A stretch of 64,000 nucleotides of DNA from assembly GCA_963726265.1 (NCBI GenBank), contig CAVSBQ010000002.1, positions 896,001-960,000 on the forward strand. The letters are read 5' to 3'. The position numbers and the translations under genes were made by a program. This DNA comes from Candidatus Aenigmatarchaeota archaeon (lineage in GTDB: Archaea > Aenigmatarchaeota > Aenigmatarchaeia > QMZP01 > QMZT01). This document shows positions 1,967 to 61,380 of this stretch, in pieces (position 1 is the first letter of the stretch; each line of letters starts with the position of its first letter). Under the pieces are notes generated by a model, which worked only from the letters and a program-made list of their open reading frames with translations, searched no databases and had not been told where the DNA came from.

Positions 1967-2590
1967 ATGAATAAAAATAAACAAATAAAAAATAAGGTTT
2001 CTGAACTACAGCGATCCGTTCATATAGTCAATGAAAAAGGCTTTTTTAAAGACCCAATCAGGGTATCAAATATTCTCACTTCCGTATTGATTATTGTTAC
2101 AATATCTTCAGTAATTGCTACTTGTGGTATCATTTCTCTAACTAGATCTCTTGAAAATACACGACAGAAAGAGCTAATTGTTTCTAAAGTGCAATTTGTC
2201 GATAAGCTCATACTTGAACTAAAGGAAAACGAGGGCAAATTGGAACACTTAAATAAAAGTCTCGATGAATTTAGGGATAATAACGCCAACCCAATCGATA
2301 CAATTTCGATTGTTATGTTAGAAAATTCGTTTGATTTTATAGATGATAAAGAATTAGTTCAAGATATATTCGCATATTTGACAGGGTTTAGGCTACTGAA
2401 AAAAGACATTGAATATCTCCCAGTCGGAGATATGATAGTTAAAAATGATACAATAACTAAAACACGAGACAACCTTAACGGCTTATTGGCTGGAGCCAAA
2501 AATTATGATGGCCACGTGATATATGGCATTTCCAAATTAATTGAAAAATTAGAAAGTTATAAATCTAAATTAGAAAATCAATCATTGTAA
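1967..2590 (+). CDS. AT-rich hypothetical protein with single TM helix
   Basis: 207-aa ORF, much more AT-rich than neighbours. Confidence 0.7.
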   Translation: MNKNKQIKNKVSELQRSVHIVNEKGFFKDPIRVSNILTSVLIIVTISSVIATCGIISLTRSLENTRQKELIVSKVQFVDKLILELKENEGKLEHLNKSLDEFRDNNANPIDTISIVMLENSFDFIDDKELVQDIFAYLTGFRLLKKDIEYLPVGDMIVKNDTITKTRDNLNGLLAGAKNYDGHVIYGISKLIEKLESYKSKLENQSL

Positions 2591-2593
2591 TTT

Positions 2594-2650
2594 TTACTCC
2601 CCAACCACCTGCACCACTATCTCCCTCTCCCTCGGTCTCGTATCGAGGTC
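2594..2650 (-). pseudogene. orphan 3'-end remnant of yjbQ
   Basis: Translates DLDTRPREREIVVQVVGE* versus functional YjbQ tail DFDTRPRNREIVVQIIGD* (3460-3516); 13/18 aa identical, same stop position. Confidence 0.85.
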
Positions 2651-2795: not shown

Positions 2796-3137
2796 ATGCA
2801 AAAGAATATGCTCGCGCATGCCCAAGCTGCGCATGGCAGGGGAAGCGAGAAGGAATGGCATATAGAATTCAGCTGCAAGGTGGCGCATTACCCGAGGCTC
2901 GACACGGTCATCATGGTAGCGGAAGCCATAAAGAAGATAGGTCCGTGCACGAAGACCGAACTTTCAAGGAAGCTGAAGAAGGAGGTAATGTGGCCTACGC
3001 TGACCGTGATACTGGATTATTTCGAGACCATGGGCTTCATCGTCAAGGACAAGGCAGGAAGGATAGTCTGGATATACAATCCCGAGATGGTCAGGAAGTA
3101 TGCGAAGAGAAAGGATCTTGAATGGAAGCCAAGATAA
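2796..3137 (+). CDS. putative winged-helix antitoxin/regulator
   Basis: wHTH-like segment (KTELSRKL...WPTLTVILDYFE..G.I); overlaps downstream RelE-like gene. Confidence 0.6.
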   Translation: MQKNMLAHAQAAHGRGSEKEWHIEFSCKVAHYPRLDTVIMVAEAIKKIGPCTKTELSRKLKKEVMWPTLTVILDYFETMGFIVKDKAGRIVWIYNPEMVRKYAKRKDLEWKPR

Positions 3138-3451
3138 TATTTGCCGACAAAAAGCTGAAAGAAGAATACGAGTCGCTTGAGCACAGCGCGGAATTCGGCT
3201 GGCTTTACAAAGCGCTTAACAGAGCGTTCGCTGACATAATGGATAAGCCTTCCATCGGCGTACCGCTCAAGAAAAACAGGATACCGAAAGACCTAGCACG
3301 CAAAAAGATAGACAACATCTGGAAATACGATTTGCCAAGCGGATGGCGACTTTTGTATTCGCTTGGCCGTGAAGGCATAACGATAATAGCGCTTGTTCTG
3401 GAGTGGTGCGACCACGACGGTTATCAGAAGAGATACAGTGGCAGGAAATAA
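3122..3451 (+). CDS. RelE/ParE-superfamily toxin
   Basis: 109 aa, NIWKYDLPSGWRLLYS and terminal DH..Y pattern typical of archaeal RelE-like proteins. Confidence 0.7.
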   Translation: MEAKIIFADKKLKEEYESLEHSAEFGWLYKALNRAFADIMDKPSIGVPLKKNRIPKDLARKKIDNIWKYDLPSGWRLLYSLGREGITIIALVLEWCDHDGYQKRYSGRK

Positions 3452-3459
3452 GATGCTTT

Positions 3460-3876
3460 TCAGTCTCCGATTATTTGCACTACTATTTCCCTATTACGCG
3501 GCCTCGTATCGAAGTCCAAAAGAGCGATTTGCTGCCACGTGCCTAACAGGAGCTTGCGGTTCTCAAAGGGGACTGTGATGCCCGGCTTCATGAGGCATGC
3601 GCGGACATGCGCGCTGCCGTTGTCGTCGTGCCATGTTTTGTGATGCTCGTAATCTGCGCCTTCTGGGGCGATTTTGTTTAGGGCGCGCTTGATGTCCTTG
3701 ATGAGGTTTGGTTCGTATTCTAATGTCGAGATGGAAGCGGTCGAGCCGCTGACGAAGACGCAGGCTATGCCTGACTTGATTTTGGACTTGCGAATGATGT
3801 CTGCGACTTCTGCCGTGATGTCTATGATGTCCGTCGCGCCTTTCGTGCTGACTGAGAACCTTGAAGTTTCCGCCAT
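3460..3876 (-). CDS. yjbQ: YjbQ/UPF0047 family protein
   Basis: DIIDIT, GSTAS...EYEP, DNGSAHVRA, LLLGTWQQI motifs. Confidence 0.92.
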   Translation of the reverse strand: MAETSRFSVSTKGATDIIDITAEVADIIRKSKIKSGIACVFVSGSTASISTLEYEPNLIKDIKRALNKIAPEGADYEHHKTWHDDNGSAHVRACLMKPGITVPFENRKLLLGTWQQIALLDFDTRPRNREIVVQIIGD

Positions 3877-3932
3877 GATGCCCACGTCAATTAATAGGAA
3901 GCAAGGAAATAATAAAATATGGAGCGACACGC

Positions 3933-5097
3933 ATGGATGTTGAAAAAGTTGAAAAAGCGGTGGACGCGCAGAAGGCCGGGATGATAAAGCTTCTTTCTGA
4001 CCTGCTGGCAAGGAACACGGCCAACCCGCCCGGCAACGAATTCTTCGCGGCAGAGGTCGTCAAGGAATTCTTTGAAAGGGAAAAAATAGCATACAGGATT
4101 TTCGAAAAGCAGAAGGGCCGTTCGAACATAATCGGTTATATAGGCAAAGGGAAGCCGCGCCTGATTATCGCCTGCCACATGGACACGGTCCCGGCTGGCG
4201 ACGGATGGAAATCGAATCCTTTCCGTGCGCGAGTTGAGGGCGACAGGATTTATGGACGAGGCGCGGTCGACAACAAAGGCCCGCTGGCTGGCATGCTCAT
4301 CGCAGGCAAAATCCTCAAGAGGCTCGAGCCATCGCTTCGCTGCCAGGTCATGCTCGCCTGCGTCGCTGACGAGGAGATGGGCTCGGAATTCGGGATGCGC
4401 TACCTGCTTGACAGCGGCCTCGACGCGGAATATGCGATTGTGCCGGACATAGAGCACGAGCTGAAGAAAATCGACGTCGCTGAGAAAGGGTCTGCTTGTT
4501 CCTGAAGGTCACTTCCCTTGGTCGCCAGGCGCACGGCTCGACTCCAGAAGCCGGGATAAACGCCGTCTGGAACATGCTCGAGTTCCTTGCGCTGCTCAAA
4601 CGCTACAGGATGCGTTTTAAACGGCATCGTCTGCTTTCGCCGCCCACCATAAACCTCGGGCGTGATAAAAGGCGGGGAAGCGACGAACATGGTGCCTGCC
4701 GCATGCGAGGCGAAAATCGACATACGCTACCTGCCTTCTCAGAAATCTTCAGATATCATAAATGATGTAAAGAAGATGCTCGCGGTCGAGAAGGAAAAAC
4801 AGGAAGGCGAGATTCAGGCTTGAAGTGATTGACCATCAGAAGCCCGTCGCCGTCGAAGGCGGCGCGCTGGTGAGGCTGATCAGAAAGCACGTAAAAGAGG
4901 TCACGGGAAACCATGCCGAGCTCATCGGCATCTCGGGGACGACGCTGGTCAAGCCGCTGGCCGAGAAAGGGATCGTCGCAGTGGGCTTCTCGCCCGGCAA
5001 AGGCCTTGCGCATACGGCGAACGAGTTCATCTCCATCGCCGAGCTCATGGCCTTCGCGAAGATACTGTGCCTGGTCTGCCTCGACCTTTCCGCTTAG
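3933..5097 (+). CDS. M20 family peptidase/deacylase (ArgE/DapE-like), frameshifted in sequence
   Basis: HMDTVP, GRGAVDNKG, DEE, AHGSTP, AHTANE motifs spread over several frames; indels near 4490, 4660 (GGG run) and 4797 (A run). Confidence 0.85.
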
Positions 5098-5816: not shown

Positions 5817-5911
5817 GACGCTTCTTCAGCTTTTTCCCGTTTTGCTTAAAAACTTAGAATCCAAGAAGACTTAAAATCAATCAAAACAAATAAAGAATAT
5901 TGCGTGATTGC

Positions 5912-7224
5912 ATGCCGGAAAAATTCGAGCTGATGAATGCGAAGGGAGCGCGGGACTTTTTGCCAGAGGAAGCCATAGCCAGGCAGGAGATAACCGGCAT
6001 GCTGAAAGCGATATTCGAGAAATACGGCTATTCGCCGCTTGAAACGCCGGCGATTGAACGGAAGGACGTGCTGTCCGCGAAATTCGCAGGCGGCGCTGAA
6101 ATAATGAAGGAGATGTTCAAGGTCGAGGACCAGGGCGGGCGTGAACTGGCGTTACGCTACGACCTGACGGTCCCGCTGGCCAAGGTCGTGGGCATGAACC
6201 CCAACCTTACGAAGCCGTTCAAACGCTATCAAATACAGCCGGTATGGCGCGATGGCCCGATAAAGCTCGGCAGATATCGAGAGTTCCTCCAGTGCGACGC
6301 GGACGTCGTCGGGACGAAGTCCATGCTCGCCGACGCCGAGATACTGGCAATCGCTTCCGAATTCTTCACGAAGCTCGGGCTGAAATTCGTGATAAGGGTG
6401 AACTCGCGCAAGCTCATGAACGGCATGCTCGATTACGCAGGCATCCATGAGAACAAGATGGATGCGATTCTCGCGATAGACAAGCTCGAGAAGTTCGGCG
6501 CAGCCGCTGTGAAGAAAGAGATGGAAGAGAAGGGCTTCGCTGCGAAAGCGGTGGAAAGCCGTGCTGAAGATGCTGGAGCTGAAAGGCGGGAACGCCGAGC
6601 TGCTCGGAAAGGCCGGGAAGCTGATCAAGAGCGAGGAAGGGAAGGAAGGCGTAAAAGAGCTGCAGGGAGCTTCTGGACTATTGCGAGGCCATGGGCGTTG
6701 AGATAAAAATCGACGTCTCGCTGGCGCGCGGGCTGGAATATTACACCGGGCCGGTTTACGAGGTTTACCTGAAGGATTCGAAGGTCACGTCGTCCGTCGC
6801 CGGCGGCGGGCGCTACGACAAGATGATAGGCATGTTCATAGGACGCGGCGAATACCCGGCGACTGGGATTTCATTCGGCATAGAGCCGCTTTTCGAGGCG
6901 CTGAATGAGCAGAAGGAAGCGAGGCCGAAGACCGTTACGCAGGCCCTTGTGATTCCCATAGGCACGCTGGACGACTCGATAAAGCTCGCGAAGAAGCTGA
7001 GGGCGCTGGGAATAAAAACGGAAATCGACCTGATGGGACGCGGCATCTCGTCGAACCTGGACTACGCGAACTCGCTGGGCATTCCTTACGTCGTGTTCCT
7101 GGGGAAGAAAGAGCTCGCGGAAAAGAAGGTCAAGCTGCGCGACATGAAATCGGGCAAGGAAAAAATGGCGACTGCCGAAGAAGCAGCTTCTGTGATAACG
7201 TCTGGGCCGTCTGGGCGCATCTAA
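5912..7224 (+). CDS. hisS: histidine--tRNA ligase (two apparent +1 homopolymer indels)
   Basis: LRYDLTVP, REFLQCDAD, RGLEYYTG, GGGRYD motifs; frame restored by removing one A near 6556 and one G near 6666. Confidence 0.93.
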
Positions 7225-7285: not shown

Positions 7286-9121
7286 ATGGTGATGAAAAGC
7301 ATAAGGCACATAACCAGCTCGAATTCCAGGACGCTCGTGCCAGACACGTCCGTTCTCATAAACAGGAAGCTCTCGGAGATGATAGAAGGCGGAAAACTCG
7401 ACGGCGTGAGGATAATCATACCCAGGATAGTCGTCGACGAGCTGCAGGCGCAGGCGTCACGGGGGAAGGACGTCGGCTTCCGCGGCCTGGACGAGATAAA
7501 GAAGATTAAGGCGCTTTGCGAGAAGCACAAGATAAAGCTCACCTTCAGCGGAGAGCGGCCTTCGCAGGACGACATAAGCCTGGCGAAAAAAGGAAGGCTG
7601 GACGCGCTAATCCGCGACTTCGCGGTGAAGGAGAACGCGACCCTTCTGACCAGCGACTACGTGCAGGCGCTGGTGGGCGAGGCTGAAAATGTTTCGATTG
7701 ACTACGTCCCGTTCGACATAAGCCACAAGGCGATAAAAATCGAGGGCTTCTTCACCCCGGACACGCAGTCCGTCCATCTCAAGGTCGGAGTGAAGCCTTA
7801 CGCGAAACGGGGGAAGCCGGGCGAGGTGAAGCTCGTCCACATCAGGGACAAGCTGGTCGATGAGGACGAGCTGAAGGCGATAATCTACGAGATACTTTCG
7901 AAGGTCCACAAGGACCCGGGCTCGTTCATCGAAATCGGGAAGCAGGGCGCCAGCGCTCTGGTCGTGCAGATGGGCAAATACAGGATAGCGATAACGAGGC
8001 CGCCTTTCTCGTCCGCGACCGAAGTCACGGCAGTCAGGCCCATCGTCAAGCTCGAGCTGAAGGACTACGCCCTTCACAAGGATGTGGAGGAAATGATAGT
8101 CGGCGACACGCGCGGCGTGCTCATAGCAGGCCCGCCCGGTTCGGGGAAATCGACCTTCGCAGGCAGCGTCGCCGAGTTCCTTTCGCACATGGGCAAGGTC
8201 GTCAAGACGTTCGAGCAGCCGAGGGATCTGCAGGTCGGCCCGGAAATAACGCAGTATGCGCCGCTCGAGAACGACTGGGAGAAAACCGCTGAAATGCTTC
8301 TTCTGGTCAGGCCGGATTACACGATTTTCGACGAGGTGAGAAAGACCAAGGATTTCCGCGTCTTCGCGGACATGCGTCTCGCCGGCGTTGGAATGATAGG
8401 CGTCGTCCACGCGACTGACGTAATCTCAGCGATACAGAGGTTCATGGGACGCATCGAATTGGGCATGATTCCCCACGTCGTCGACACTGTCATCTACATA
8501 AAGAACGGCAAAATACAGAGGATTTACACGCTCAGCCTGCTGGTGAAAGTCCCGTCAGGCATGACCGAAGCTGACCTGGCGAGGCCGGTCGTCGAGGTGC
8601 GCGACTTCGAGACGAAGAAGCTCGAATACGAGATTTACACCTTCGGCGAGGAGAACGTCGTCATCCCGATAAAGGAGGCGCCCAAGCCGCTGGTGGACAT
8701 GATCACGAAGGTCATAGGCAGGGAGATAGGCCACCTCGACAAGAACCTGCAGATAGAGTTCCTGTCGGAAAACAGGATCGTTCTGCGGGTAAGGAATGAC
8801 GTCATAGCCAAGATCATAGGAAGGCAGGGCAAGAACATCGAGGACCTCGAGAGGAAGACGGGCATACGCATCTCCGTCGAGCCCAGCGAAAACACGTTAA
8901 AACAGGAAGTCGCGTTCGAGATAGGCGAGCGCGGCAAGGCCTTCGGCATCATGGTCGGCGACAGGCTAACCGGCCAGCAGATCGATTTGTATGACGGGGA
9001 AGAGTATTTGTTTTCGCCAGTGGTCGGAAGAAAAGGAGAAGTCAGGGTAAGGAAGAAATCCGACGAAGGCCGCAAGATTCTGAGGGCGGTAAGCTCGAGA
9101 ACGCTGAGAGTGCTGGCCTAG
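7286..9121 (+). CDS. PIN-domain ATPase with KH domain (PINA family)
   Basis: N-terminal PIN (VPDTS), Walker A GPPGSGKST, C-terminal KH (IIGRQGKNI). Confidence 0.9.
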   Translation: MVMKSIRHITSSNSRTLVPDTSVLINRKLSEMIEGGKLDGVRIIIPRIVVDELQAQASRGKDVGFRGLDEIKKIKALCEKHKIKLTFSGERPSQDDISLAKKGRLDALIRDFAVKENATLLTSDYVQALVGEAENVSIDYVPFDISHKAIKIEGFFTPDTQSVHLKVGVKPYAKRGKPGEVKLVHIRDKLVDEDELKAIIYEILSKVHKDPGSFIEIGKQGASALVVQMGKYRIAITRPPFSSATEVTAVRPIVKLELKDYALHKDVEEMIVGDTRGVLIAGPPGSGKSTFAGSVAEFLSHMGKVVKTFEQPRDLQVGPEITQYAPLENDWEKTAEMLLLVRPDYTIFDEVRKTKDFRVFADMRLAGVGMIGVVHATDVISAIQRFMGRIELGMIPHVVDTVIYIKNGKIQRIYTLSLLVKVPSGMTEADLARPVVEVRDFETKKLEYEIYTFGEENVVIPIKEAPKPLVDMITKVIGREIGHLDKNLQIEFLSENRIVLRVRNDVIAKIIGRQGKNIEDLERKTGIRISVEPSENTLKQEVAFEIGERGKAFGIMVGDRLTGQQIDLYDGEEYLFSPVVGRKGEVRVRKKSDEGRKILRAVSSRTLRVLA

Positions 9122-24162: not shown

Positions 24163-24441
24163 TTATTCCTTTGATTTTTTCCATATATCAAGAAAATTAG
24201 GCGTTTCTTTTTTTATTTGTGCTCTGCTGTTTGCTAAAGAAATCTCCGCAATAATTCTAGCTTCTTCTGGTTCATGACCTTGACTGACAAGTGCTGGATG
24301 AAGATGATTGTAGGCGTAGTCTCGCGCTTTTGCAATTTCTAACCCGGCCCTTAACGTTTCATTGGTATAAGTTTGCATTGCTTTTGACCATTTCACATCT
24401 TCCTTCAATTTTGTTATTTCAGATTTATAATCATCCGCCAT
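24163..24441 (-). CDS. AT-rich hypothetical protein
   Basis: 92-aa ORF convergent on nreA. Confidence 0.6.
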   Translation of the reverse strand: MADDYKSEITKLKEDVKWSKAMQTYTNETLRAGLEIAKARDYAYNHLHPALVSQGHEPEEARIIAEISLANSRAQIKKETPNFLDIWKKSKE

Positions 24442-30177: not shown

Positions 30178-31494
30178 ATGACTTCAGAAATAGCAATATT
30201 AAACAGTGAAGGAGTTGCTCTAGCAAGTGATAGTGCAGTTACTATAAATCAAGGTATAAAAATATATAATTCAGCAAACAAATTGTTTTGCCTATCAAAA
30301 TTCAAACCAGTAGGGATAATGATTTATGGAAATGCTAGTTTCATGAAAACTCCATTTGAAACTATTATTAAGGTTTTTCGAGAAAAATTATCTGATAAAT
30401 CATACCCAAAATTAGAAGATTATGCAGATGAGTTCATAAAATTTTTAAATAAAAATGAAATTGGAATTAGTAATAGTCAACAAACGAGTTATCGTGACTT
30501 CTTTATTCGCAACATTTTTAATGAAATAAAAAATAACATAGTGGAATCTTGCGATGATTTAATAAAAAAGAAAGGAAAAATTACTAAAAAAGAAATAAAT
30601 AAAATTTCCCTTTTAATCATAAATCAATTTAAAGAAAATTTTAGTGAAAATAAAAAATTAGAATGTTATTCTGATAAATTTTTATTAAAATTTAAAAAAT
30701 CTGTCAAATCCATTATTAATAAATCTATTAAAAATATTTTTCAAAATTTGCCACTTTCAAAAAAAGAAATTAACTATTTGGAAGAAATTATAATTTCTAT
30801 ATTCACAAAAGACAATTTTCCACCATGGGAATCAGGCATTGTAATTGCCGGTTTTGGTGAAAAAGAAATATTCCCATCACTCGTTTCATATGAAATTGAA
30901 GCTTTAATTAATAATGAATTAAAATTTAAAAAGGGTTTGCGTAGAGATAAAATAGGTTTTACAAAAAAAGCTTCGATAATTCCTTTTGCTCAGTCAGAAA
31001 TGGTTCATACTTTTATGCAGGGTGTAGATCCAAATTATAAGGAAACAACTCTATCATATTTGGAAAATGTATTTTCAAAATATCCGGATATTTTAATAGA
31101 TAATTTAAAGGACTTTTCACACCTAACAAAAAGAGATAAAAAAAATATTAAACGAAAATTAAAGAAAATAAGTTTGGATATGTTTAAAGAATATGATAAA
31201 AAAATGTCTAATTTTTCAAGGAAAAATCATATAGATAAGGTTCTTGATGTTGTTGCTGTTTTACCTAAGGATGAATTGGCTGCCATGGCAGAATCTCTTG
31301 TCAATTTAACTTCTTTCAAAAGAAGAGTCAGTATGTCTCAAGAGACAGTTGGAGGTCCAATTGATGTTGCAGTTATCTCAAAGGGAGATGGATTTATTTG
31401 GATTAAGAGAAAACATTACTTCAAACCAGAATTAAATCATCACTTTTTTAAAAACTATTTTAAAATTATGGAGGTGAATAATGAAAAAGAATGA
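30178..31494 (+). CDS. proteasome-beta-like Ntn-hydrolase with large helical insertion
   Basis: After Met removal: Thr1, Asp17 (ALASDS), Lys34 (ANKLF), GIVIAGF, C-terminal TVGGPIDVAVI; extremely AT-rich. Confidence 0.7.
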   Translation: MTSEIAILNSEGVALASDSAVTINQGIKIYNSANKLFCLSKFKPVGIMIYGNASFMKTPFETIIKVFREKLSDKSYPKLEDYADEFIKFLNKNEIGISNSQQTSYRDFFIRNIFNEIKNNIVESCDDLIKKKGKITKKEINKISLLIINQFKENFSENKKLECYSDKFLLKFKKSVKSIINKSIKNIFQNLPLSKKEINYLEEIIISIFTKDNFPPWESGIVIAGFGEKEIFPSLVSYEIEALINNELKFKKGLRRDKIGFTKKASIIPFAQSEMVHTFMQGVDPNYKETTLSYLENVFSKYPDILIDNLKDFSHLTKRDKKNIKRKLKKISLDMFKEYDKKMSNFSRKNHIDKVLDVVAVLPKDELAAMAESLVNLTSFKRRVSMSQETVGGPIDVAVISKGDGFIWIKRKHYFKPELNHHFFKNYFKIMEVNNEKE

Positions 31495-37659: not shown

Positions 37660-38289
37660 ATGAAAAAGCCGTTTGAACAAATATTTGTTGAGCCTATCGT
37701 TCACCCAGTTAAGCACCGCGTCGCTGAACCATATCTCAAGACTCCTGATCAGATATATCTATCCGATACTTCGCCTGTTGCAGTGGTGGTGAGGGAACTG
37801 GCCTATGCCTCCCATACCGGAGACCAGAAATTACTGATTGCTGTAATGCGCAAATACAGAGGGCTGCTCAATAAAGCTTTTGGCGTCAGCGAAGATGGCT
37901 CGTTACAATTAGATTCATTTATGGCGGAATGTGAAAAGAAATTACCCGACGACGTCTTCCCTTCTTACGCTGACGGAGGTATAAGAATCGGTGATTTTTT
38001 TAAAGATAATTTGAGAGGCTATGTTTTAGAAAAACATCCAGATTTTTCTTCTTCCAGTCCGCTGGAACCGATGTCTTACCTTTCCATGAAACCGGAAAAT
38101 TTGTCATCTTCTTTGATATTGGCCCAGCGTCCCATGAGAGATGATGACGGGAAGCCTTTTGGAAAAAAATATGGCATATCTGAAATAATACCTCTTGCCG
38201 TGAAAGCAAAAGAAAGGCCTTTGCGACAACGTGTCGAGATGTCAATGAAAAAAATACCCAGGAGAAAAAAGCAGATGACATTCCCGTGA
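37660..38289 (+). CDS. AT-richer hypothetical protein
   Basis: 209-aa ORF with AGGTGA SD. Confidence 0.65.
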   Translation: MKKPFEQIFVEPIVHPVKHRVAEPYLKTPDQIYLSDTSPVAVVVRELAYASHTGDQKLLIAVMRKYRGLLNKAFGVSEDGSLQLDSFMAECEKKLPDDVFPSYADGGIRIGDFFKDNLRGYVLEKHPDFSSSSPLEPMSYLSMKPENLSSSLILAQRPMRDDDGKPFGKKYGISEIIPLAVKAKERPLRQRVEMSMKKIPRRKKQMTFP

Positions 38290-44261: not shown

Positions 44262-44942
44262 ATGAAAAACGTCGCAGTGCTTTTCTCCGGCGCGAAGGAC
44301 TCGACCTTCGCAGTCTACAAGGCCATGGGCATGGGGCTGCACGTTAAATTCCTGCTCACGCTTCTGCCCAAGAGGGACGATTCATACATGTTCCACCACC
44401 CGAACGTGCAGTGGGCAAGGCTGCACGCCGAGGCCATGGGCATCCCCATAGTCTTCAGGGAAGTGAGCGGAGAGGAGGGAAAGGAAGTCGAGGAGATGAA
44501 AGGCATCCTCGCGTCGCTGAAGCCCGAGATAGACGGCGTCGTTTCCGGCGCCCTGGCGAGCCGCTACCAGAGGACAAGGATAGACAACGCCTGCAAGGAG
44601 CTCGGCCTAGAATCCATATCGCCCCACTGGAACAGGGGCATAAAGGATTACCTCGAGGACCTGATAATATCGGGCTTTGACGTCATATTCATCGCGGTCG
44701 CGGCAGAAGGCCTCAACGAGAGCTGGCTGGGCAGGAGGCTTGACCGCGAGGCGCTGAAAGACCTGGAAAAGCTCCATGAAAAGCACGGCGTCCACATGGG
44801 TGGTGAGGGAGGCGAATACGAATCGTTCGTCCTCGACGCGCCGATTTTCAAAAAGAGGGTGAGAATCCTGCATGCCCACAAGGAATGGGACGGCGCAAGG
44901 GGCGCTTACATCATAGACAGCGCGGAGCTTGTCGAGAAGTAA
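44262..44942 (+). CDS. dph6: diphthine--ammonia ligase
   Basis: SGAKDS PP-loop variant, SYMFH, GEGGEYESFV. Confidence 0.9.
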   Translation: MKNVAVLFSGAKDSTFAVYKAMGMGLHVKFLLTLLPKRDDSYMFHHPNVQWARLHAEAMGIPIVFREVSGEEGKEVEEMKGILASLKPEIDGVVSGALASRYQRTRIDNACKELGLESISPHWNRGIKDYLEDLIISGFDVIFIAVAAEGLNESWLGRRLDREALKDLEKLHEKHGVHMGGEGGEYESFVLDAPIFKKRVRILHAHKEWDGARGAYIIDSAELVEK

Positions 44943-44951
44943 TAGTCGGTT

Positions 44952-45686
44952 TCACATTCTGGAAATTTTTCCAGCCTTTGCCAAAACCGCCTCTGCCTTG
45001 ATTTTTTCAGCTTGCCTGCGAGTAAAAGCAGCATGCAGATTTTGTTCTTTTCTAACCACCAACATCTCAGATTCATAGTTTATATAACGCAATACAGGCG
45101 TCTCGCCGTCCAGACGCAGACAAAAAAGATCAGGCCCGTCATGATGAAATGAAATTTCAACTGTCTTTTTGTAAGCTAATATTTTGGCGTAGTCACCAAA
45201 AGGAAAGATATCTTCAAACATCATTTCAAAAAGATTTTTATCCAGTTTTGGCAGTTTGAAGGCCATTCGTATAACGCATTCTTTGAATTTTCCCACGTTC
45301 CTGATTTCCATTCCATCCGGATAAAATTCCAGGCCCAGTTCCATGGGATTTTTATTGTAACCAAGTCTTTTACCTACCGATTTGCAGGATAAATCGACAT
45401 AACGCGTGTTATTATAAGAATCGACATAATCACCGCATCTGCCATAAGGAACAAATTTATCGCAACCACCCTCCGGATATGAGCATGGCTCAGGTTTAAA
45501 ATCCTTTTCCGACAGGCCTGTAATTAAAAATTTATTAATTTCTGTTTCCCCGAAAATCCGGGGAGGAGAATAAAAATCGCCGTCACCGATTCCGAATGCA
45601 GAATTAGGTTTTACCCCCAAAATTCTCAAGGCATACGTTTGAGCAAATTTCGCAGGTAAAAATGTTTCTATTGCCCTATTTGTCAT
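44952..45686 (-). CDS. AT-rich hypothetical protein
   Basis: 244-aa ORF with atypical composition. Confidence 0.65.
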   Translation of the reverse strand: MTNRAIETFLPAKFAQTYALRILGVKPNSAFGIGDGDFYSPPRIFGETEINKFLITGLSEKDFKPEPCSYPEGGCDKFVPYGRCGDYVDSYNNTRYVDLSCKSVGKRLGYNKNPMELGLEFYPDGMEIRNVGKFKECVIRMAFKLPKLDKNLFEMMFEDIFPFGDYAKILAYKKTVEISFHHDGPDLFCLRLDGETPVLRYINYESEMLVVRKEQNLHAAFTRRQAEKIKAEAVLAKAGKISRM

Positions 45687-45749
45687 ATTTTATTTTGATA
45701 ATTAGTTTTAAATCCGCATTTTTCCAGAATTTTTGCCGTTCCTGGATTT

Positions 45750-45791
45750 CTATAATCTGCGGTCCAGAACCTGGTTTACCATCCTGTCCGC
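45750..45791 (-). pseudogene. orphan 3'-end remnant of rnhA
   Basis: Translates ADRMVNQVLDRRL* versus functional tail ADRMVNQVLDKIF* (46263-46304), with synonymous differences. Confidence 0.88.
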
Positions 45792-45794
45792 ACT

Positions 45795-45835
45795 CAGAAG
45801 AAATGGGATAGTGCAGAGCTCGTCGAAAAAAATAA
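45795..45835 (+). pseudogene. orphan 3'-end remnant of dph6
   Basis: Translates QKKWDSAELVEK versus functional HKEWD(GARGAYIID)SAELVEK*. Confidence 0.8.
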
Positions 45836-45837
45836 TT

Positions 45838-46185
45838 TTATTTTTTTTGATATTTTCTTATGATGATGGATTCGGGATATCTAATGTCACCAATGAAGCC
45901 GCTAATTGACAGAACATCCCCTTCCCTGACATTCTGGATGCCACTGCGCCTGCGTAAAAGAGGGTTATAGCTGAAAACAACACCTCTTTTTTCATCTTCT
46001 AATAAGAGACATTCTGTGCTATATTCTACCCTCTTTACTTTCAGTTTATCAATCTGATACCAATGATCTCGGGTATTTTTTAGAGATTTTATTATTCCTG
46101 GTGCATTATCAATAGCGTCACCAAGAGAATCGAAAATGTAGAATGTTTTCCTCCACCAACCCTTGCCAGTTGTTGTCGTTTGCAT
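45838..46185 (-). CDS. AT-rich hypothetical protein (possible OB-like fold)
   Basis: 115-aa ORF; VREGDVLSISG segment. Confidence 0.6.
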   Translation of the reverse strand: MQTTTTGKGWWRKTFYIFDSLGDAIDNAPGIIKSLKNTRDHWYQIDKLKVKRVEYSTECLLLEDEKRGVVFSYNPLLRRRSGIQNVREGDVLSISGFIGDIRYPESIIIRKYQKK

Positions 46186-46262
46186 GATTATATGTAAGAA
46201 ATTAGTTTTTTATTGTTATTTTCACGCTTTGGTGCTATGCATGAACTTATACTGCTCATTAG

Positions 46263-46700
46263 CTAAAAAATTTTATCAAGAACTTGGTTTACCATGCGGT
46301 CAGCCCGCTGGATTACAGGGTCCGTCCTGCGCACGCTGACATAGCCGACTTTCGCGAATTTCTTCTCGAGCGTTTTCGCTTCGTCATGCAGCTCCTTCAG
46401 ATGGCCTTTCTTGACCTTGTATTCGCCCTTCATCTGGCTTATCATGAGCTGGCTGTCGGAGAAACACGTGATTTCAGCGCCTCCGCTTTCGCCTACGAGC
46501 TTCGCGGCTTCTTTCAGCGCCAGGATGAGCGCCCTGTATTCGGCGATGTTGTTGGTGCAGGCACCAATGAATTCGGCGCGCTCCTTCAGCAGGTTGCCTT
46601 TCTCGTCAGTTATTATGAACGCCGCCGCGCCCGGGCCCGGGTTGCCGCGCGATGCGCCGTCGGTGTAAATCTTCAATTTTTCGCGTTTCATTTTTTCCAC
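46263..46700 (-). CDS. rnhA: ribonuclease HI
   Basis: YTDGASRGNPGP, TNNIAEY, DSQL, RAD. Confidence 0.93.
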   Translation of the reverse strand: MEKMKREKLKIYTDGASRGNPGPGAAAFIITDEKGNLLKERAEFIGACTNNIAEYRALILALKEAAKLVGESGGAEITCFSDSQLMISQMKGEYKVKKGHLKELHDEAKTLEKKFAKVGYVSVRRTDPVIQRADRMVNQVLDKIF

Positions 46701-51011: not shown

Positions 51012-51632
51012 ATGGAAAGGCTATCAAGGAACGGGATTGGGATATTGAACCTGTTCAGAAAAAACATTTTTTTAAGCGGCTCCATCAGGGAGATAGCAGC
51101 CTTGCTGAAAAAGCCGTACCCGAAAGTTTACGAGGCGGCCAAAGAGCTTGAGAGACGAAACGTCATACATCTGAGGAAAGCCGGGAACGCCAGCCTGTGC
51201 GAGATCATGCTTTCGAAGGAGGCTGTTTCTGTTCTGTCCTTCCTGGACGGGCAGGAGGCAATCTCCCGGAACATCCCGAACATGGAAAAGATACTCGAGT
51301 TCAGGGAATTTTTGGATGACATAATAGTAGTCGCGGGAAGCTACGCAAAAGGCAGGCAGACCCCGAAATCGGATATAGACCTGGTCTTGATAACCAAGGA
51401 AGGCGCTGCCCGAAAGCAAAAGCTGCTGGAGAACATGACCATGACCTTCCTTCCCAGAATACATGCGGTTACATTCAGCTACAAAGATTTTGTAGACATG
51501 CTTTTGAGCAGAGACGAGAATTTCGGGAAAGAGGTTTTCAGGAATCACCTGATATTCAGGAACACCGAAAGATATTATCTTTTGCTCAAGGAGGCAATTG
51601 AAAATGGATTCAGAAGCAAAAATCTATCTTGA
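51012..51632 (+). CDS. HTH-fused minimal nucleotidyltransferase (MNT) antitoxin
   Basis: N-terminal wHTH; GSYAKG...SDIDL. Confidence 0.85.
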   Translation: MERLSRNGIGILNLFRKNIFLSGSIREIAALLKKPYPKVYEAAKELERRNVIHLRKAGNASLCEIMLSKEAVSVLSFLDGQEAISRNIPNMEKILEFREFLDDIIVVAGSYAKGRQTPKSDIDLVLITKEGAARKQKLLENMTMTFLPRIHAVTFSYKDFVDMLLSRDENFGKEVFRNHLIFRNTERYYLLLKEAIENGFRSKNLS

Positions 51633-52113
51633 ACGGGCGGACAGCAAAATCCTGCTTGCGAAAACCGTTTTTGACATATCCATGAGCAGGCAGCTGAAGG
51701 GGATATTGGGCATCACGCAAGACAAGACCTTTTTCAGCGACGTCATTTCCATGGCGTATTACGGCATATTCTATGCGGCTAAAGCGTATCTGCTCTCGGA
51801 GAGGATAAAGACCTCTCCGCCGGAGGAGCATAAGAAAACGTATGACGAATTCAAAAAATTCGTCGCCTCGGGGAGAATAGGCAGGCAGCTTCTGGACATT
51901 TACGATGAGGAGACTCAAAAAGCGGAAGCCCTGTTGAAAATATTCCACGACGAGAGGAGAAAAAGAGGCATTTTTACATACAACGTGAAATCCGAGGCGA
52001 ATATCCCCGCTGCGCGGGAGTCCATCGACAACGCAAGGGATTTCATTTCGGCGGTCAAGCTTGTGATGGGACAAAACGGGCACTTTATTAAAAACAGGCT
52101 ACAAAAGAAATAA
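51604..52113 (+). CDS. HEPN domain protein (toxin)
   Basis: AYYGIFYAAKAYL, EH, R..FTY; overlaps MNT gene. Confidence 0.85.
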   Translation: MDSEAKIYLERADSKILLAKTVFDISMSRQLKGILGITQDKTFFSDVISMAYYGIFYAAKAYLLSERIKTSPPEEHKKTYDEFKKFVASGRIGRQLLDIYDEETQKAEALLKIFHDERRKRGIFTYNVKSEANIPAARESIDNARDFISAVKLVMGQNGHFIKNRLQKK

Positions 52114-52130
52114 TATGGTGGGATATTATT

Positions 52131-53518
52131 ATGCTTGACATACAGCTTTTCAGGGAGAACGCCGACGTCATCCGCGAATCGGAGAAGAAGCGCTTCAAGG
52201 ACGAGGCGCTGGTCGACAAGGTCGTGGAGCTGGACAGGAAATGGCGCGAGGCTCTTAAACAGGCGGAGGCGCTGAGGCACAGGAGGAACGTCGTTTCCAT
52301 GGAGATTGCCGGCCTGAAGAAGGCAGGCAAGCACGCCGACGGCAAAATAAGCGAGATGAAGAGCGTCAACATCAGGATAGGCGAGAACGAAAGCCTGGCG
52401 AACGAGCTGCTCGCGAAACGCGACGCCTGCAGGTATAAGATAGGCAACGTCCTGCACAGTGACGTCGTCACGGGCAGGGGCGAGCACGAGAACAAGTTCA
52501 TCCGCGCCTGGGGCAAGCCGCTCGTCCTTCTCAACGACATGGAAAGCTTCAAGCGAGATACGAGGGGAACGCTCGCCTTCGAGCCGCTCCACTTCAAGCC
52601 CAGGAGCCATGTAGAGCTGCTCGAGGAACTCGACCTCGCCGACATCGAAAGAGCGGGAAGCTTTCCGGCGCGAGATTCTATTATCTGAAGAACGAGCTGG
52701 TCATGCTCAACCTCGCGCTCATACGCTTCGCCTTGGACTTCCTCGTGAAAAAGGGCTTCACGCCCATGTGGACGCCCTTCATGCTGCAGAAGGACGCGAT
52801 TTCCGCCGCGGCCGAGCTCGGCGACTTCGAAAGCCAGCTCTACAAAATCGAGGGAGAAGACCTGTTCCTTATAGCGACGGCCGAGCAGACGCTGGCGGCG
52901 TATCACATGGGAGAGACGTTCCAGGAGAAAGAGCTGCCCAAGACGTATGCGGGATTCTCGACCAACTTCCGCCGCGAAGCGGGTTCGCACGGCAAAGACA
53001 CGAAAGGCATCTTCCGCGTCCACCAGTTCGACAAGGTCGAGCAGTTCGTCTTATGCAGGCGCGAAGACTCCGGGGCATGGTTCGACAAGCTGATCGCGAA
53101 CGCCGAGGCGCTCTACCAGAAGCTCGATATTCCATACAGGATAATGTCCGTGTGCTCGGGCGAGATGAACGACAACGCGGCGATAAAGTATGACCTCGAG
53201 GCATGGATGCCGGCGCAGGGGCAGTTCCGCGAGATGGTGTCATGCTCGAATTGCACGGATTACCAGCCGAGGAAGCTGGGCATAAAGGTGATGAGGAAGG
53301 ATGGTAAGAGCGAGACGCTCCACACGCTCAACTCGACTGCGATAGCGACGGAACGCGCTCTCACCGCGATCCTCGAGAACTGCCAGCAGAAGGACGGCAG
53401 CATAAAGATACCCAAGCCGCTTGCCGCATACGCCGGCTTCAGGGAGATAGAAAGGAAGGCGGTCAAGGAAAAGACGAAGGGAAGACGCGAAGAAGAGATA
53501 GCAACGGGGATGGCATGA
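52131..53518 (+). CDS. serS: serine--tRNA ligase (1-nt indel near 52658)
   Basis: MLDI..FREN, LIATAEQ, FRREAG, RVHQFDKVEQF, SCSNCTDYQ; adding one A restores GKLSGARFYYLKN. Confidence 0.94.
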
Positions 53519-55831: not shown

Positions 55832-56527
55832 TTATCTTGGAGTAAAAACTAGATGACTGAATTTTACAGGAGTCTTTCCGTCTGGAGCTGGTTTAAATGC
55901 GGCTCTTGCAACTTCCCTTTCTTTCCAAGCCTCCTCTCCGTCTACCAAAAGATAGCTTTGAATATGGAACTCTTTTGGCTGTTTTGTCGTTATAGAAGGC
56001 CTATTTATATCAAATGCATAGGTAAAATCTCCAGTTTCTTCATAATTGGAAGAGTCAAAATTTATTAAAAGATGCTCATTTGGAATTGTCCTTCGGTTTG
56101 ATGTCCCGCCATAATTACTCTTTCTTATACGAACACCTGTAACAATTGTTCCATCTCCTAAGTCGATAGTTGTTACTCCTAACCTTTCTTGCATTTTTGA
56201 TTCTTCTTCACAAATTTGTTTAATTGCATCACCAAAATCCATGGAAAAAATAACTTCTAAATCACCCTGTGGTATTAACAACTCCCCTCTCCTTTGCCAG
56301 ACAGGATTTCTTAATACGTATACTTCTGCTTTATGCGCAGAAAGCTTATCGTGTTCTCTGTTTGGTGGAAATCTTTTGAGAAAATCCAATCCTGCCTCAG
56401 CCACTTCTTTCTTAACTCCGACTTCGGCAGCTTCTTCGGGATGTGATAAACAATGTCGGTAAAAACTGGTATTATCTTCAATTCTGCATTTCGTGTAATT
56501 AAATCCGTTATATTTCGCGCCTCTCAT
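55832..56527 (-). CDS. AT-rich hypothetical protein
   Basis: 231-aa ORF with atypical composition. Confidence 0.65.
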   Translation of the reverse strand: MRGAKYNGFNYTKCRIEDNTSFYRHCLSHPEEAAEVGVKKEVAEAGLDFLKRFPPNREHDKLSAHKAEVYVLRNPVWQRRGELLIPQGDLEVIFSMDFGDAIKQICEEESKMQERLGVTTIDLGDGTIVTGVRIRKSNYGGTSNRRTIPNEHLLINFDSSNYEETGDFTYAFDINRPSITTKQPKEFHIQSYLLVDGEEAWKEREVARAAFKPAPDGKTPVKFSHLVFTPR

Positions 56528-56605
56528 GTAAATTATAATCTTGACAATCTTTATAAACCTATAGATTGTTTACTACTTTATCATTACTAATTTTATACGT
56601 TCTAG

Positions 56606-56860
56606 CTATCTGCTGTACATGAAGAGGTCCGGGACCCAGCTCTTCATCATCACGTAAACGACCAGCGTGTCCACGAAAAGGAAGATGCCCACTATGACTA
56701 TGCCGAAGATGATGCTCGTGTTGAGCTCGCCCACGTTGCAGACGAACTTCTCCTTGTAGTCGCATATCAGCTTGGTCTTTATCATGGAATCGAAGGTGAA
56801 GAAGATGAAGACGCAGGAGATGAACACGACGAGCATGCCGAGAAAAAGGACGATTTTCAT
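56606..56860 (-). CDS. small two-TM membrane protein
   Basis: 84 aa, overlaps rnp4 stop. Confidence 0.65.
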   Translation of the reverse strand: MKIVLFLGMLVVFISCVFIFFTFDSMIKTKLICDYKEKFVCNVGELNTSIIFGIVIVGIFLFVDTLVVYVMMKSWVPDLFMYSR

Positions 56861-57207
56861 GCTTTCTTTCTCCTCTTTTTAATAATTCCCCTTTCCCTTA
56901 TATAAGGATGCCTCGCCACAGAACCGCACGCGAGGCACGTGACGACGACGGCCTGCTTGTCATCACGTAAGCGAATTCTGCAGCTCACGCCGGGCCTGAG
57001 ATACGCATTGCACTTCCTGCAGAACTCGCTTTTTTGTCGCTTGCCCAGCCTCACGTTGTAGCGCATCGCAATCCTGCGCGCGAGTTCGACGTAGCGCTTC
57101 GCCCGCTCCGGATGCTTCCTGAACTCGCGCTCCGCCTGCTCGAAGAGAAGCGCGATCCGTTCCTTCGATATGTTCGTCCAAGCCTCGGGCTTCTTCCTGC
57201 TGCGCAT
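56857..57207 (-). CDS. rnp4: RNase P protein component Rpp21
   Basis: ERIALLF, RYVELARRI, FCRKC...TCLACG..RHPY. Confidence 0.92.
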   Translation of the reverse strand: MRSRKKPEAWTNISKERIALLFEQAEREFRKHPERAKRYVELARRIAMRYNVRLGKRQKSEFCRKCNAYLRPGVSCRIRLRDDKQAVVVTCLACGSVARHPYIRERGIIKKRRKKA

Positions 57208-57289
57208 GAATAGGTTTTGTTTCGCAAAATAAAAAGCGTTCCTGCTGCTATGGCTATCAAAAATAAAGGTAAAAAAAATCAAAAGGGAA

Positions 57290-60574: not shown

Positions 60575-61054
60575 TTAGACGAATCCCCTTACACCTCTGA
60601 GTGAAGTATTGTTATAAATTTTTTCTGATACTTCGTCAGCCCATATTTCCTCGTTAACATAATCCGGAACTTTTACCCATCCTTTGGCCTTTGCCCTATG
60701 AGCTCTTTCATGTAAAAGCACCTTGAAAGGATCATGGCCGTATTTTGTCGCATCCTTAGCTATCCTAATCTTGTCATCATCTTCTGTGTAAAGGCCGACA
60801 TGCTTTCCAGGAAGTCCGTAACGGTTTGCAATTCTCGTTACATCTTCAACATCAAGCAGCTCGACATCGGAATCTCCATCTACGTATCTGATTCCAGGAC
60901 CGTTCTTGCCGAATATGAAATCTTTTATGTATTTCCAGCCCTTTCCTGCTATTTCCAGAATCGGTTTGTATGGATTTTCAGTGAACTGTGGAAACGGCTG
61001 AGCACGTGCTACCGACTCTCCGCCTGAATAATTTTTAAATCTTTTTCTTGTCAT
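60575..61054 (-). CDS. small zincin-like metallopeptidase (ImmA/IrrE-like)
   Basis: GLY....IRI, LLHERAH (HExxH), EEIWAD. Confidence 0.6.
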   Translation of the reverse strand: MTRKRFKNYSGGESVARAQPFPQFTENPYKPILEIAGKGWKYIKDFIFGKNGPGIRYVDGDSDVELLDVEDVTRIANRYGLPGKHVGLYTEDDDKIRIAKDATKYGHDPFKVLLHERAHRAKAKGWVKVPDYVNEEIWADEVSEKIYNNTSLRGVRGFV

Positions 61055-61380
61055 CTCAAGCACCCTTTTCTGCTTCGTCTTTTTTATTTTCTCGTTTTTT
61101 ATTTTGTATAAATCTGAGATGCCACACCCTTTACCCTCATGGATGTGTTGTCTCTGATAAGTAATTAATTCTGGTATATATAAAGCTTTCTTCGGGGATT
61201 TTTCGATATGCATCGCCGCTGCTTTTGACGGGTAAGCGCTTCCTGGGCGTGGGCAAAGAAGGCTGGAAAAGCCTTATTTTCGCCAAAGCGGGCCGTAAAA
61301 CTTTATATAGCGAAAAAGGAATTATCTAGCGTAACTGTTTGAACTGACGTTGCAACGGTGTGAGAAATAGGGGATTAGAC

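Follow-up and report, generated by a model that had tools for sequence, protein, structure and literature searches.

How two unrelated AT-rich genes came to stand between two convergent housekeeping genes, with stray 3' ends of both neighbors between them, is the question raised by the dph6/rnhA locus of a Candidatus Aenigmatarchaeota archaeon, a member of a DPANN phylum. The window analysed here, a stretch of 64,000 nucleotides, is part of the 1.105-Mb contig C2 of a 1.13-Mb genome (four contigs, 88% complete; G000 in our comparisons), whose 1202 genes come from a simple, unvalidated in-house caller. In it dph6 and rnhA face each other, and ORF244 and ORF115, both AT-rich and both on the minus strand, lie between them with an orphan rnhA 3' end and an orphan dph6 3' end in the middle (Table 1). 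Our best reading, to which we give a probability of roughly two in three, is that a piece of a relative's DNA carrying an rnhA tail, ORF115 and a dph6 tail entered by homology in rnhA and was joined non-homologously on its far side, a 3'-end displacement resembling homology-facilitated illegitimate recombination (HFIR).

A first-pass annotation of the window had described the order dph6, ORF244, rnhA', dph6', ORF115, rnhA, and its coordinates, strands and orphan tails are borne out. It also had the two orphans abutting directly, which is right to within one codon, since 3 nt lie between them. The orphan rnhA tail reads ADRMVNQVLDRRL and the working tail ADRMVNQVLDKIF, each followed by a stop codon, with the stops in register. 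All six differences in the 10-codon core of this pair are synonymous, and the last three sense codons hold six non-synonymous ones. The dph6 orphan reads QKKWD-SAELVEK against HKEWD-GARGAYIID-SAELVEK in the working gene, 27 nt having been deleted between two Asp codons; six of six differences in its 8-codon core are again synonymous, and its 5-codon left piece has one synonymous and two non-synonymous differences. The earlier observation that the tails differ mostly at synonymous positions thus stands (13 of 21 differences overall, 12 of 12 in the cores). When six random substitutions were simulated in the two cores, all were silent in only 6 and 7 of 200,000 trials, although the core limits were picked by amino-acid identity, which inflates this significance. 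A hidden Markov model (HMM) of the rnhA tail retrieves the rnhA orphan from the whole genome at E 6.5e-4; the dph6 orphan alone is weak (score 37), and its identification rests on its position. Since silent sites have diverged and amino acids are intact, selection appears to have acted on both copies, in separate lineages, until not long ago; this speaks against a decayed local duplication.

Table 1. Features of the dph6/rnhA slot and of the second stacked slot, at yjbQ, in window coordinates.
Feature	Position	Strand	Evidence and remarks
dph6, diphthamide synthase family, working copy with native-looking tail	44262..44942	+	Pfam PF01902 E 1e-73; contig of a ~95% identical relative aligns through 44933
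ORF244, older cargo, function not assigned	44952..45686	-	GC 0.395, GC3 0.35
AT-rich spacer upstream of ORF244	45687..45749	-	GC 0.27; likely promoter region
Orphan rnhA 3' end, 14 codons including stop, displaced earlier tail	45750..45791	-	30/42 nt identical; HMM E 6.5e-4
Non-homologous junction between both orphans	45792..45794	.	X1 contig 45555-45960 crosses, 0 differences
Orphan dph6 3' end with 27-nt internal deletion, far end of the putative incoming piece	45795..45830	+	8/8 aa core
ORF115, newer cargo, function not assigned	45838..46185	-	GC 0.376
rnhA (RNase HI)	46263..46700	-	Pfam PF00075/PF13456; last ~14-18 codons probably donor-derived
ORF207, older AT-rich cargo of the second stacked slot, behind an HTH gene	1967..2590	+	
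Orphan yjbQ (UPF0047) 3' end, 19 codons, stop in register	2594..2650	-	Score 75, 41/57 nt
Newer cargo, HTH-like gene and weakly ParE/RelE-like gene	2808..3451	+	Pfam below cut-off, E 0.02 and 0.05
yjbQ (UPF0047), anchor of the second slot	3460..3885	-	Pfam PF01894 E 1e-35

Which of the two rnhA tails is the newcomer can be judged from composition and from relatives. Core genes of this genome have a third-position GC content (GC3) of ~0.7-0.85. As had been noticed, the orphan rnhA tail is written in GC-rich codons and the working tail in AT-rich ones (GC3 10/14 and 5/14), and GC3 along the working gene falls from ~0.7 to 0.44 and 0.17 in its final segments. Its identity to the nearest locus, L044, drops from 91% to 61% from codon 133 on. 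For 19 of 22 relatives, which are not independent of one another, the orphan core is the nearer of the two tails (one tie, two opposite). We also compared the locus with contigs of four runs, X1 to X4; an X2 contig from a ~95% identical relative joins position 44933 to 46318 and skips both cassettes (the letters between are not known), so that its alignment ends within rnhA but reaches almost to the dph6 stop. For dph6 the polarity is reversed, with GC3 of 7/8 in the working copy and 3/8 in the orphan. Since it is the working rnhA tail that stands out and the dph6 orphan that is AT-rich, the incoming piece would have consisted of dph6 stub, ORF115 and rnhA tail.

The interval between dph6 and rnhA varies among relatives, as the first-pass annotation had anticipated. 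Thirteen of the 15 related-genome loci examined hold both genes, and in 12 of these the slot is empty (gap -18 to 24 nt); the other, G005, which belongs to a different genus, has a 704-nt gap with a single 210-aa gene. Among 80 metagenome rnhA loci, some of which may duplicate related genomes already counted, nine have dph6 downstream, seven with an empty slot and two (L050 and L051, identical in this interval) with a single 113-aa gene. That gene is a clear homolog of ORF115 (L051: 32% identity over 114 aa, E 4e-20) and has a 12-nt upstream stretch in common with it; it ends at the dph6 stop, much as ORF115 stops next to the dph6 orphan. For the G005 gene a remote relationship to ORF244 is probable, judging by 28% identity over 68 aa (BLASTP E 3e-5, a score reached by 0 of 2000 shuffles) and by ORF244 being its best match among the 1202 proteins of G000. 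Both homologs were found by inspecting the dph6/rnhA slot, and their location is therefore not an unbiased draw. The slot thus exists in four states: empty, with an ORF244-like gene alone, with an ORF115-like gene alone, and with both stacked and orphans between them. G005 and L050/L051 have one cargo and no orphan, as a double crossover would give. Among the closest relatives a single one, ~95% identical, was seen, and it is the one whose contig skips both cassettes.

ORF244 and ORF115 are unrelated to each other, and neither matched a Pfam or PADLOC family; no relative of either was detected outside this slot. Homolog searches with the two returned only the queries themselves among 322 and 1 candidates, and a search of representatives with ORF244 gave itself and one 32-residue match to a 1043-aa protein. 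Two-sequence profiles run over 371 genomes of the class matched 1 (ORF115) and 2 (ORF244), all of them members of the models, and 0 of 269 viral candidates for ORF115 were confirmed. The ESM Atlas gave nothing usable for ORF244; for ORF115 all matches scored under 0.9, some falling in tRNA_anti/BOF clusters (OB-fold, we presume), which is a lead only, and the AlphaFold model of ORF115 has a pLDDT of 40. The neighboring gap, between a metallophosphoesterase gene and dph6, holds homologous antisense genes of ~255 aa with an HGNE motif (presumably M14-peptidase-like) in G001 (L031 ~5896-6766), G003 (L029 ~7532-8350) and L049 (~1670-2517); this gene is absent from G000 and most others.

Is the dph6/rnhA scar a single accident? 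Exact-seed repeat searches missed both orphans, and tiled blastn detected only the MFS, pcm and yjbQ pairs plus low-complexity pairs, missing rnhA and ndk. In a tail scan the last 25 residues of 1062 genes were compared with the next 3 kb at a score threshold of 45. It gave five same-strand matches downstream, none antisense, none at random places and one upstream; control scans with head and middle peptides gave 3, 3 and 1 matches of at least 45, and the 10 listed control matches of at least 42 were repeat proteins, paralogs with mis-called starts, or in one case a likely chance match. A tail copy behind C2:35341-35775 was dropped as low-complexity, which leaves rnhA, yjbQ, ndk and pcm; an earlier pass over 848 genes had also given an orphan of an MFS gene, overlapped by its own cargo ORF. 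The duplicated ends are exclusively 3' ends, and the expectation that further tail remnants would occur in the genome is thereby met with yjbQ, ndk, pcm and MFS. At ndk two genes, one of them a nucleotidyltransferase, precede the orphan, which resembles the working tails of G003 and G004, where the same downstream gene directly follows ndk; at pcm a nucleotidyltransferase and HepT-like pair precedes it, and the two tails are identical at 31 of 33 positions. Within 1.5-kb flanks the ndk orphan is absent from the loci of 15 relatives and the pcm orphan from those of 14. At yjbQ the slot is again stacked (Table 1), its ORF207 lying behind an HTH gene that we take to be MBF1-like, and the newer cargo is a possible toxin-antitoxin pair. 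Codons 81-111 of this yjbQ (window ~3550-3645) are 91-93% identical to G003, compared with 60-82% before them, so the working gene may hold another mosaic tract. A weak orphan candidate of 8 codons (C2:55385-55408, minus strand, stop in register, 18/24 nt) lies 600 nt downstream of the gene at 56009-57247, presumably glyA-like; its score of 30 is at noise level.

The yjbQ end has been used repeatedly in this class. A yjbQ-tail profile, which loses sensitivity in genomes more distant from the family, found its target in 244 of 371 class genomes and gave two matches in 13 of these; four of these second matches are orphans (G000, G002, G018 and G339), and the other nine were set aside as paralogs, copies on other contigs or noise. 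Of 80 named yjbQ loci, 64 have at least 1.5 kb downstream, and three of those score at least 40, two already counted and one new (L242), with none antisense and one upstream. The scar is therefore present in G000 and four other genomes, with five cargos: the HTH/ParE-like pair, a 165-aa gene with Gly-X-Y repeats, a LAGLIDADG-like gene, an AbiEi/AbiEii pair and a Bro-N gene. The five orphans begin 18, 13, 20, 12 and 23 codons before the stop and have no flank in common. The G018 orphan encodes the same amino acids as the working tail of G014, a member of its genus (12 synonymous differences, 0 non-synonymous). In the working yjbQ of G018, identity to G014 drops at about codon 97, from 71-95% to 53-63%, whereas G014 and G009 stay at 82-85% there. 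The foreign sequence in G018 thus begins ~25 codons upstream of the orphan start, which points to a homologous anchor further upstream and to an illegitimate join distinct from it. In other cases the tails are near-identical, at 35/39 in G339 and 69/72 in L242, where the three differences are silent and the junction lies near the cargo stop; nine of nine differences in the young cases pcm, G339 and L242 are synonymous, stop-to-stop changes counted. A second nearby rnhA tail was found in none of the 44 other matching genomes of 91. The G018 cargo (L207:3369-4514) is a free-standing 381-aa LAGLIDADG-like protein with a C-terminal HTH whose gene overlaps the yjbQ stop, and a homing-type route could apply to it. 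At L244:180-1050 an 8-oxoguanine glycosylase gene (PF22175) is followed by a short gene and a diverged copy of the glycosylase tail with its stop out of register, possibly the same type of scar in another archaeon.

These observations suggest the following course of events. The tail-to-tail junction of dph6 and rnhA would be a small exchangeable slot, mostly empty in relatives, in which ORF244 was resident first. A piece from a diverged relative, running from rnhA through ORF115 to the dph6 3' end, would have undergone homologous recombination within the last part of rnhA, and a non-homologous join at about codon 133 would have tied its other end, in the donor's dph6 tail, to the resident rnhA. 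The working rnhA would thereby have gained a donor tail, its old 14 codons would have been orphaned with the donor dph6 stub beside them, ORF244 would have been pushed along, and a later or concurrent 27-nt deletion would have shortened the stub. General recombination would suffice, with no dedicated enzyme, and RadA and RadB-like genes are present in the genome. Clean exchange of cassettes, which the single-cargo relatives suggest, would follow from a double crossover in rnhA and dph6; a one-sided event would stack them. Anchoring by homology at one end, which leaves donor sequence in the working gene, is clear in G018 and is seen at low resolution in rnhA (GC3, L044 and X2); the non-homologous join at variable positions is seen in the differing start points of the yjbQ orphans. 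A few bases of microhomology at the illegitimate join are a feature of HFIR, and a 5-nt overlap at this join is possible from relatives' dph6 codons. What we observe is the anatomy, the synonymous divergence, slots that are empty or hold one cargo, the recurrence and the varying start points; we infer in which direction and sequence the events ran, that they took a linear route in one step, and how the DNA came in. The first-pass annotation had proposed that the dph6/ORF115/rnhA junction of a relative came in through homology in rnhA, supplanted the tail and settled next to the resident cassette, and the proposal gains from the L050/L051 homolog, from the 19 of 22 relatives and from the other remnants.

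Several points weigh against this course. The rnhA of L050/L051 is only 58% identical and so does not supply the missing donor. Most rnhA tails of the genus are longer than the two seen here, and the tail of the X2 relative aligned to neither copy, so the rnhA orphan may not be native but an earlier import, perhaps from the arrival of ORF244. At dph6, relatives are no more distant from the orphan than from the working tail, which leaves GC3 over 8 codons and X2 as the basis for polarity. Only G018 shows the signature of an upstream anchor clearly, and at rnhA the separation between anchor and join is within ~4 codons. Orphans of MFS and pcm are no richer in GC than their working tails. Four of seven co-directional junctions (pcm, ndk, G339 and L242) fall within ~11 nt of the cargo stop, a closeness not predicted by plain HFIR. 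Finally, neither DprA nor a resolvase was found in this 88% complete genome, and the missing DprA counts on the same side.

A rival route runs through a circular intermediate, in which tail plus cargo circularises, enters by one homologous crossover in the tail and is later trimmed of redundant DNA. Such a circle would leave the same end structure; the four junctions at cargo stops look like a self-closed unit of tail plus gene, the 27-nt deletion in the dph6 orphan shows that trimming occurs, and Jackson et al. 2009 (PMC2935791) proposed a circle for displacement of rhs C-termini. We nevertheless consider it rather unlikely: the joint here is 45 nt past the ORF115 stop, inside the dph6 stub (the distance is 62 nt in G002, and at MFS cargo and orphan overlap), and the foreign tract upstream of the orphan in G018 would require a minimal circle to be trimmed later. 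No circular or excision joint occurs in X1, X3 or X4 contigs, which carries no weight because contigs drop rare forms. A bolder idea, decidedly doubtful, is that integrase-free mini-cassettes, each a housekeeping tail with one gene or toxin-antitoxin pair and closed or cut at the cargo stop, dock into matching ends across genus and family borders and stack as in an integron; the precision at the stops and the five uses of yjbQ would then point to a dedicated or transcript-linked capture step.

The remaining explanations fare worse. An integrase acting in trans or since lost, which rebuilt the 3' end of its target as e14 does at icd or worked as in an integron, would account for the gene-cargo-orphan outline familiar from icd/e14/icdC (PMC13626634), several cargos are toxin-antitoxin pairs typical of mobile elements, and the genome does encode two tyrosine recombinases (PF00589). 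Both recombinase genes lie elsewhere, however (C2 ~110 kb and the end of C1), and neither is near any scar; there are five yjbQ start points, at least six anchor genes and no shared junction sequence, fixed crossover, motif or hairpin; six of eight junction folds are no better than shuffles (z -0.8 to +2.4), and only one is beyond -2, the window junction having z -2.55 on one strand and -1.55 on the other. The inserts, 0.5-1.3 kb, hold no recombinase and no fixed att core (transposase families were not searched), and a donor dph6 stub is not expected from an integrase. The integrase reading, very improbable in our view, is largely refuted by the variable start points. The first-pass annotation was thus right that no integrase is visible at the sites, and its description of an integron-like array with conserved gene ends as recombination sites does not hold; the remnants, 24-42 nt at 71-75% identity, would be too short and too diverged for re-use. 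Local duplication of host sequence, as a tandem slot duplication or a long target duplication followed by neutral decay, is suggested by the near-identical tails of pcm, G339 and L242, which resemble the 40-50-bp target duplications of PMC2853133, yet it too seems scarcely credible: the 12 of 12 and 9 of 9 exclusively synonymous differences speak against neutral decay, ORF244 and ORF115 are unrelated, a target duplication would leave both tails on each side of a single cargo, an arrangement other than the one seen, and the locus has no near-identical repeats but tails at 71-75% identity with synonymous bias. Least probable of all, to the point of being nearly negligible, is that assembly fused two co-occurring relatives that carry different cargo. 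In its favor, each half resembles the allele of a different relative, X1 may be the source sample, and from X1 to X4 no contig piece runs across the entire locus. Still, the chimera check that had been proposed for reads at 45750-45835, done here with contigs, found the X1 contig crossing the junction with >160 nt on each side at a depth of 4.6, like its neighbors; X3, from a different study, covers 46085-46235 unchanged; the scar recurs in four other independently assembled genomes; and a 27-nt deletion with 71-75% identity would not be expected of assembler joins.

The HFIR-like reading finds its closest parallel in the effector-immunity arrays of the Vibrio cholerae type VI secretion system, where, according to the sequential displacement proposed by Kirchberger et al. 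2017 (PMC5361080), homologous integration is one-sided with a non-homologous far join, the older module is pushed downstream, orphan 3' pieces remain and no integrase is shown. The present case differs from that account in its single-copy housekeeping anchors, its swapped ortholog tail, a cargo unrelated to the anchor, stubs left by both flanks and an archaeal host. In rhs displacement (PMC2935791) the incoming 3' end likewise replaces the resident one, which stays downstream as a remnant of variable length; there the tip is the payload, whereas here the tail is the handle, and the circular intermediate of that proposal is not shown here. With its empty, ORF244-like, ORF115-like and stacked contents the dph6/rnhA slot behaves like the minimal mobile elements of Neisseria as defined in PMC3787668 and PMC1797815, although there a double crossover leaves no orphan and here the comparison of alleles is between species and genera instead of strains, and two alleles are stacked. 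Prophage e14 at icd has a replaced gene 3' end, an insert and a diverged C-terminal pseudogene, icdC, but is a 15-kb excisable element (PMC13626634), against our small recombinase-free inserts with variable start. Long target duplications (Furuta et al. 2010, PMC2853133) share 40-70 bp repeats, sometimes over a gene 3' end, around inserts without mobility genes; in that survey the repeats are near-identical, the cargo is restriction-modification and no archaeal case was retained, as against the synonymous differences and varied cargo found here. We found no archaeal or DPANN report of an HFIR-type scar in the literature searched, in which subscription journals were thinly covered. The structure is a natural scar of a process described in bacteria and not a new cassette machine.

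Accessory genes are scattered singly among core genes throughout the contig, where low-GC3 genes form 125 runs, 94 of them single genes. Within the window further lone AT-rich ORFans stand among core genes at 24163-24441, 30178-31494, 37660-38289, 55832-56527 and 60575-61213, with no Pfam match and no orphan tail detected, the pattern that clean double-crossover insertions would give. An HTH-nucleotidyltransferase gene and a weak HEPN partner with intermediate GC3 lie at 51012-52113 with no adjoining orphan. Two ORFs, at 52131-52688 and 52703-53518, share one gene that we take to be seryl-tRNA-synthetase-like; this and similar splits at 3933-5097 and 5912-7224 may be assembly indel errors. Elsewhere on C2 (424076-425108) there is a 195-nt direct repeat at 95% identity with a spacing of 840 nt.

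What these scars mean is that a 1.1-Mb archaeon with almost no mobile-element machinery can still add single genes and toxin-antitoxin pairs, using the ends of housekeeping genes as handles, and that the silent sites of its donors may be almost saturated with changes. A further consequence is that the final codons of a core gene need not share the descent of the codons before them. Each event can be read, with its order and direction, from the orphan tail it left, and yjbQ offers five natural replicates with which to weigh linear one-sided recombination against circular intermediates. The mechanism is known from bacteria; the gain is a wider range for it and a good test set with unusually complete slot states.

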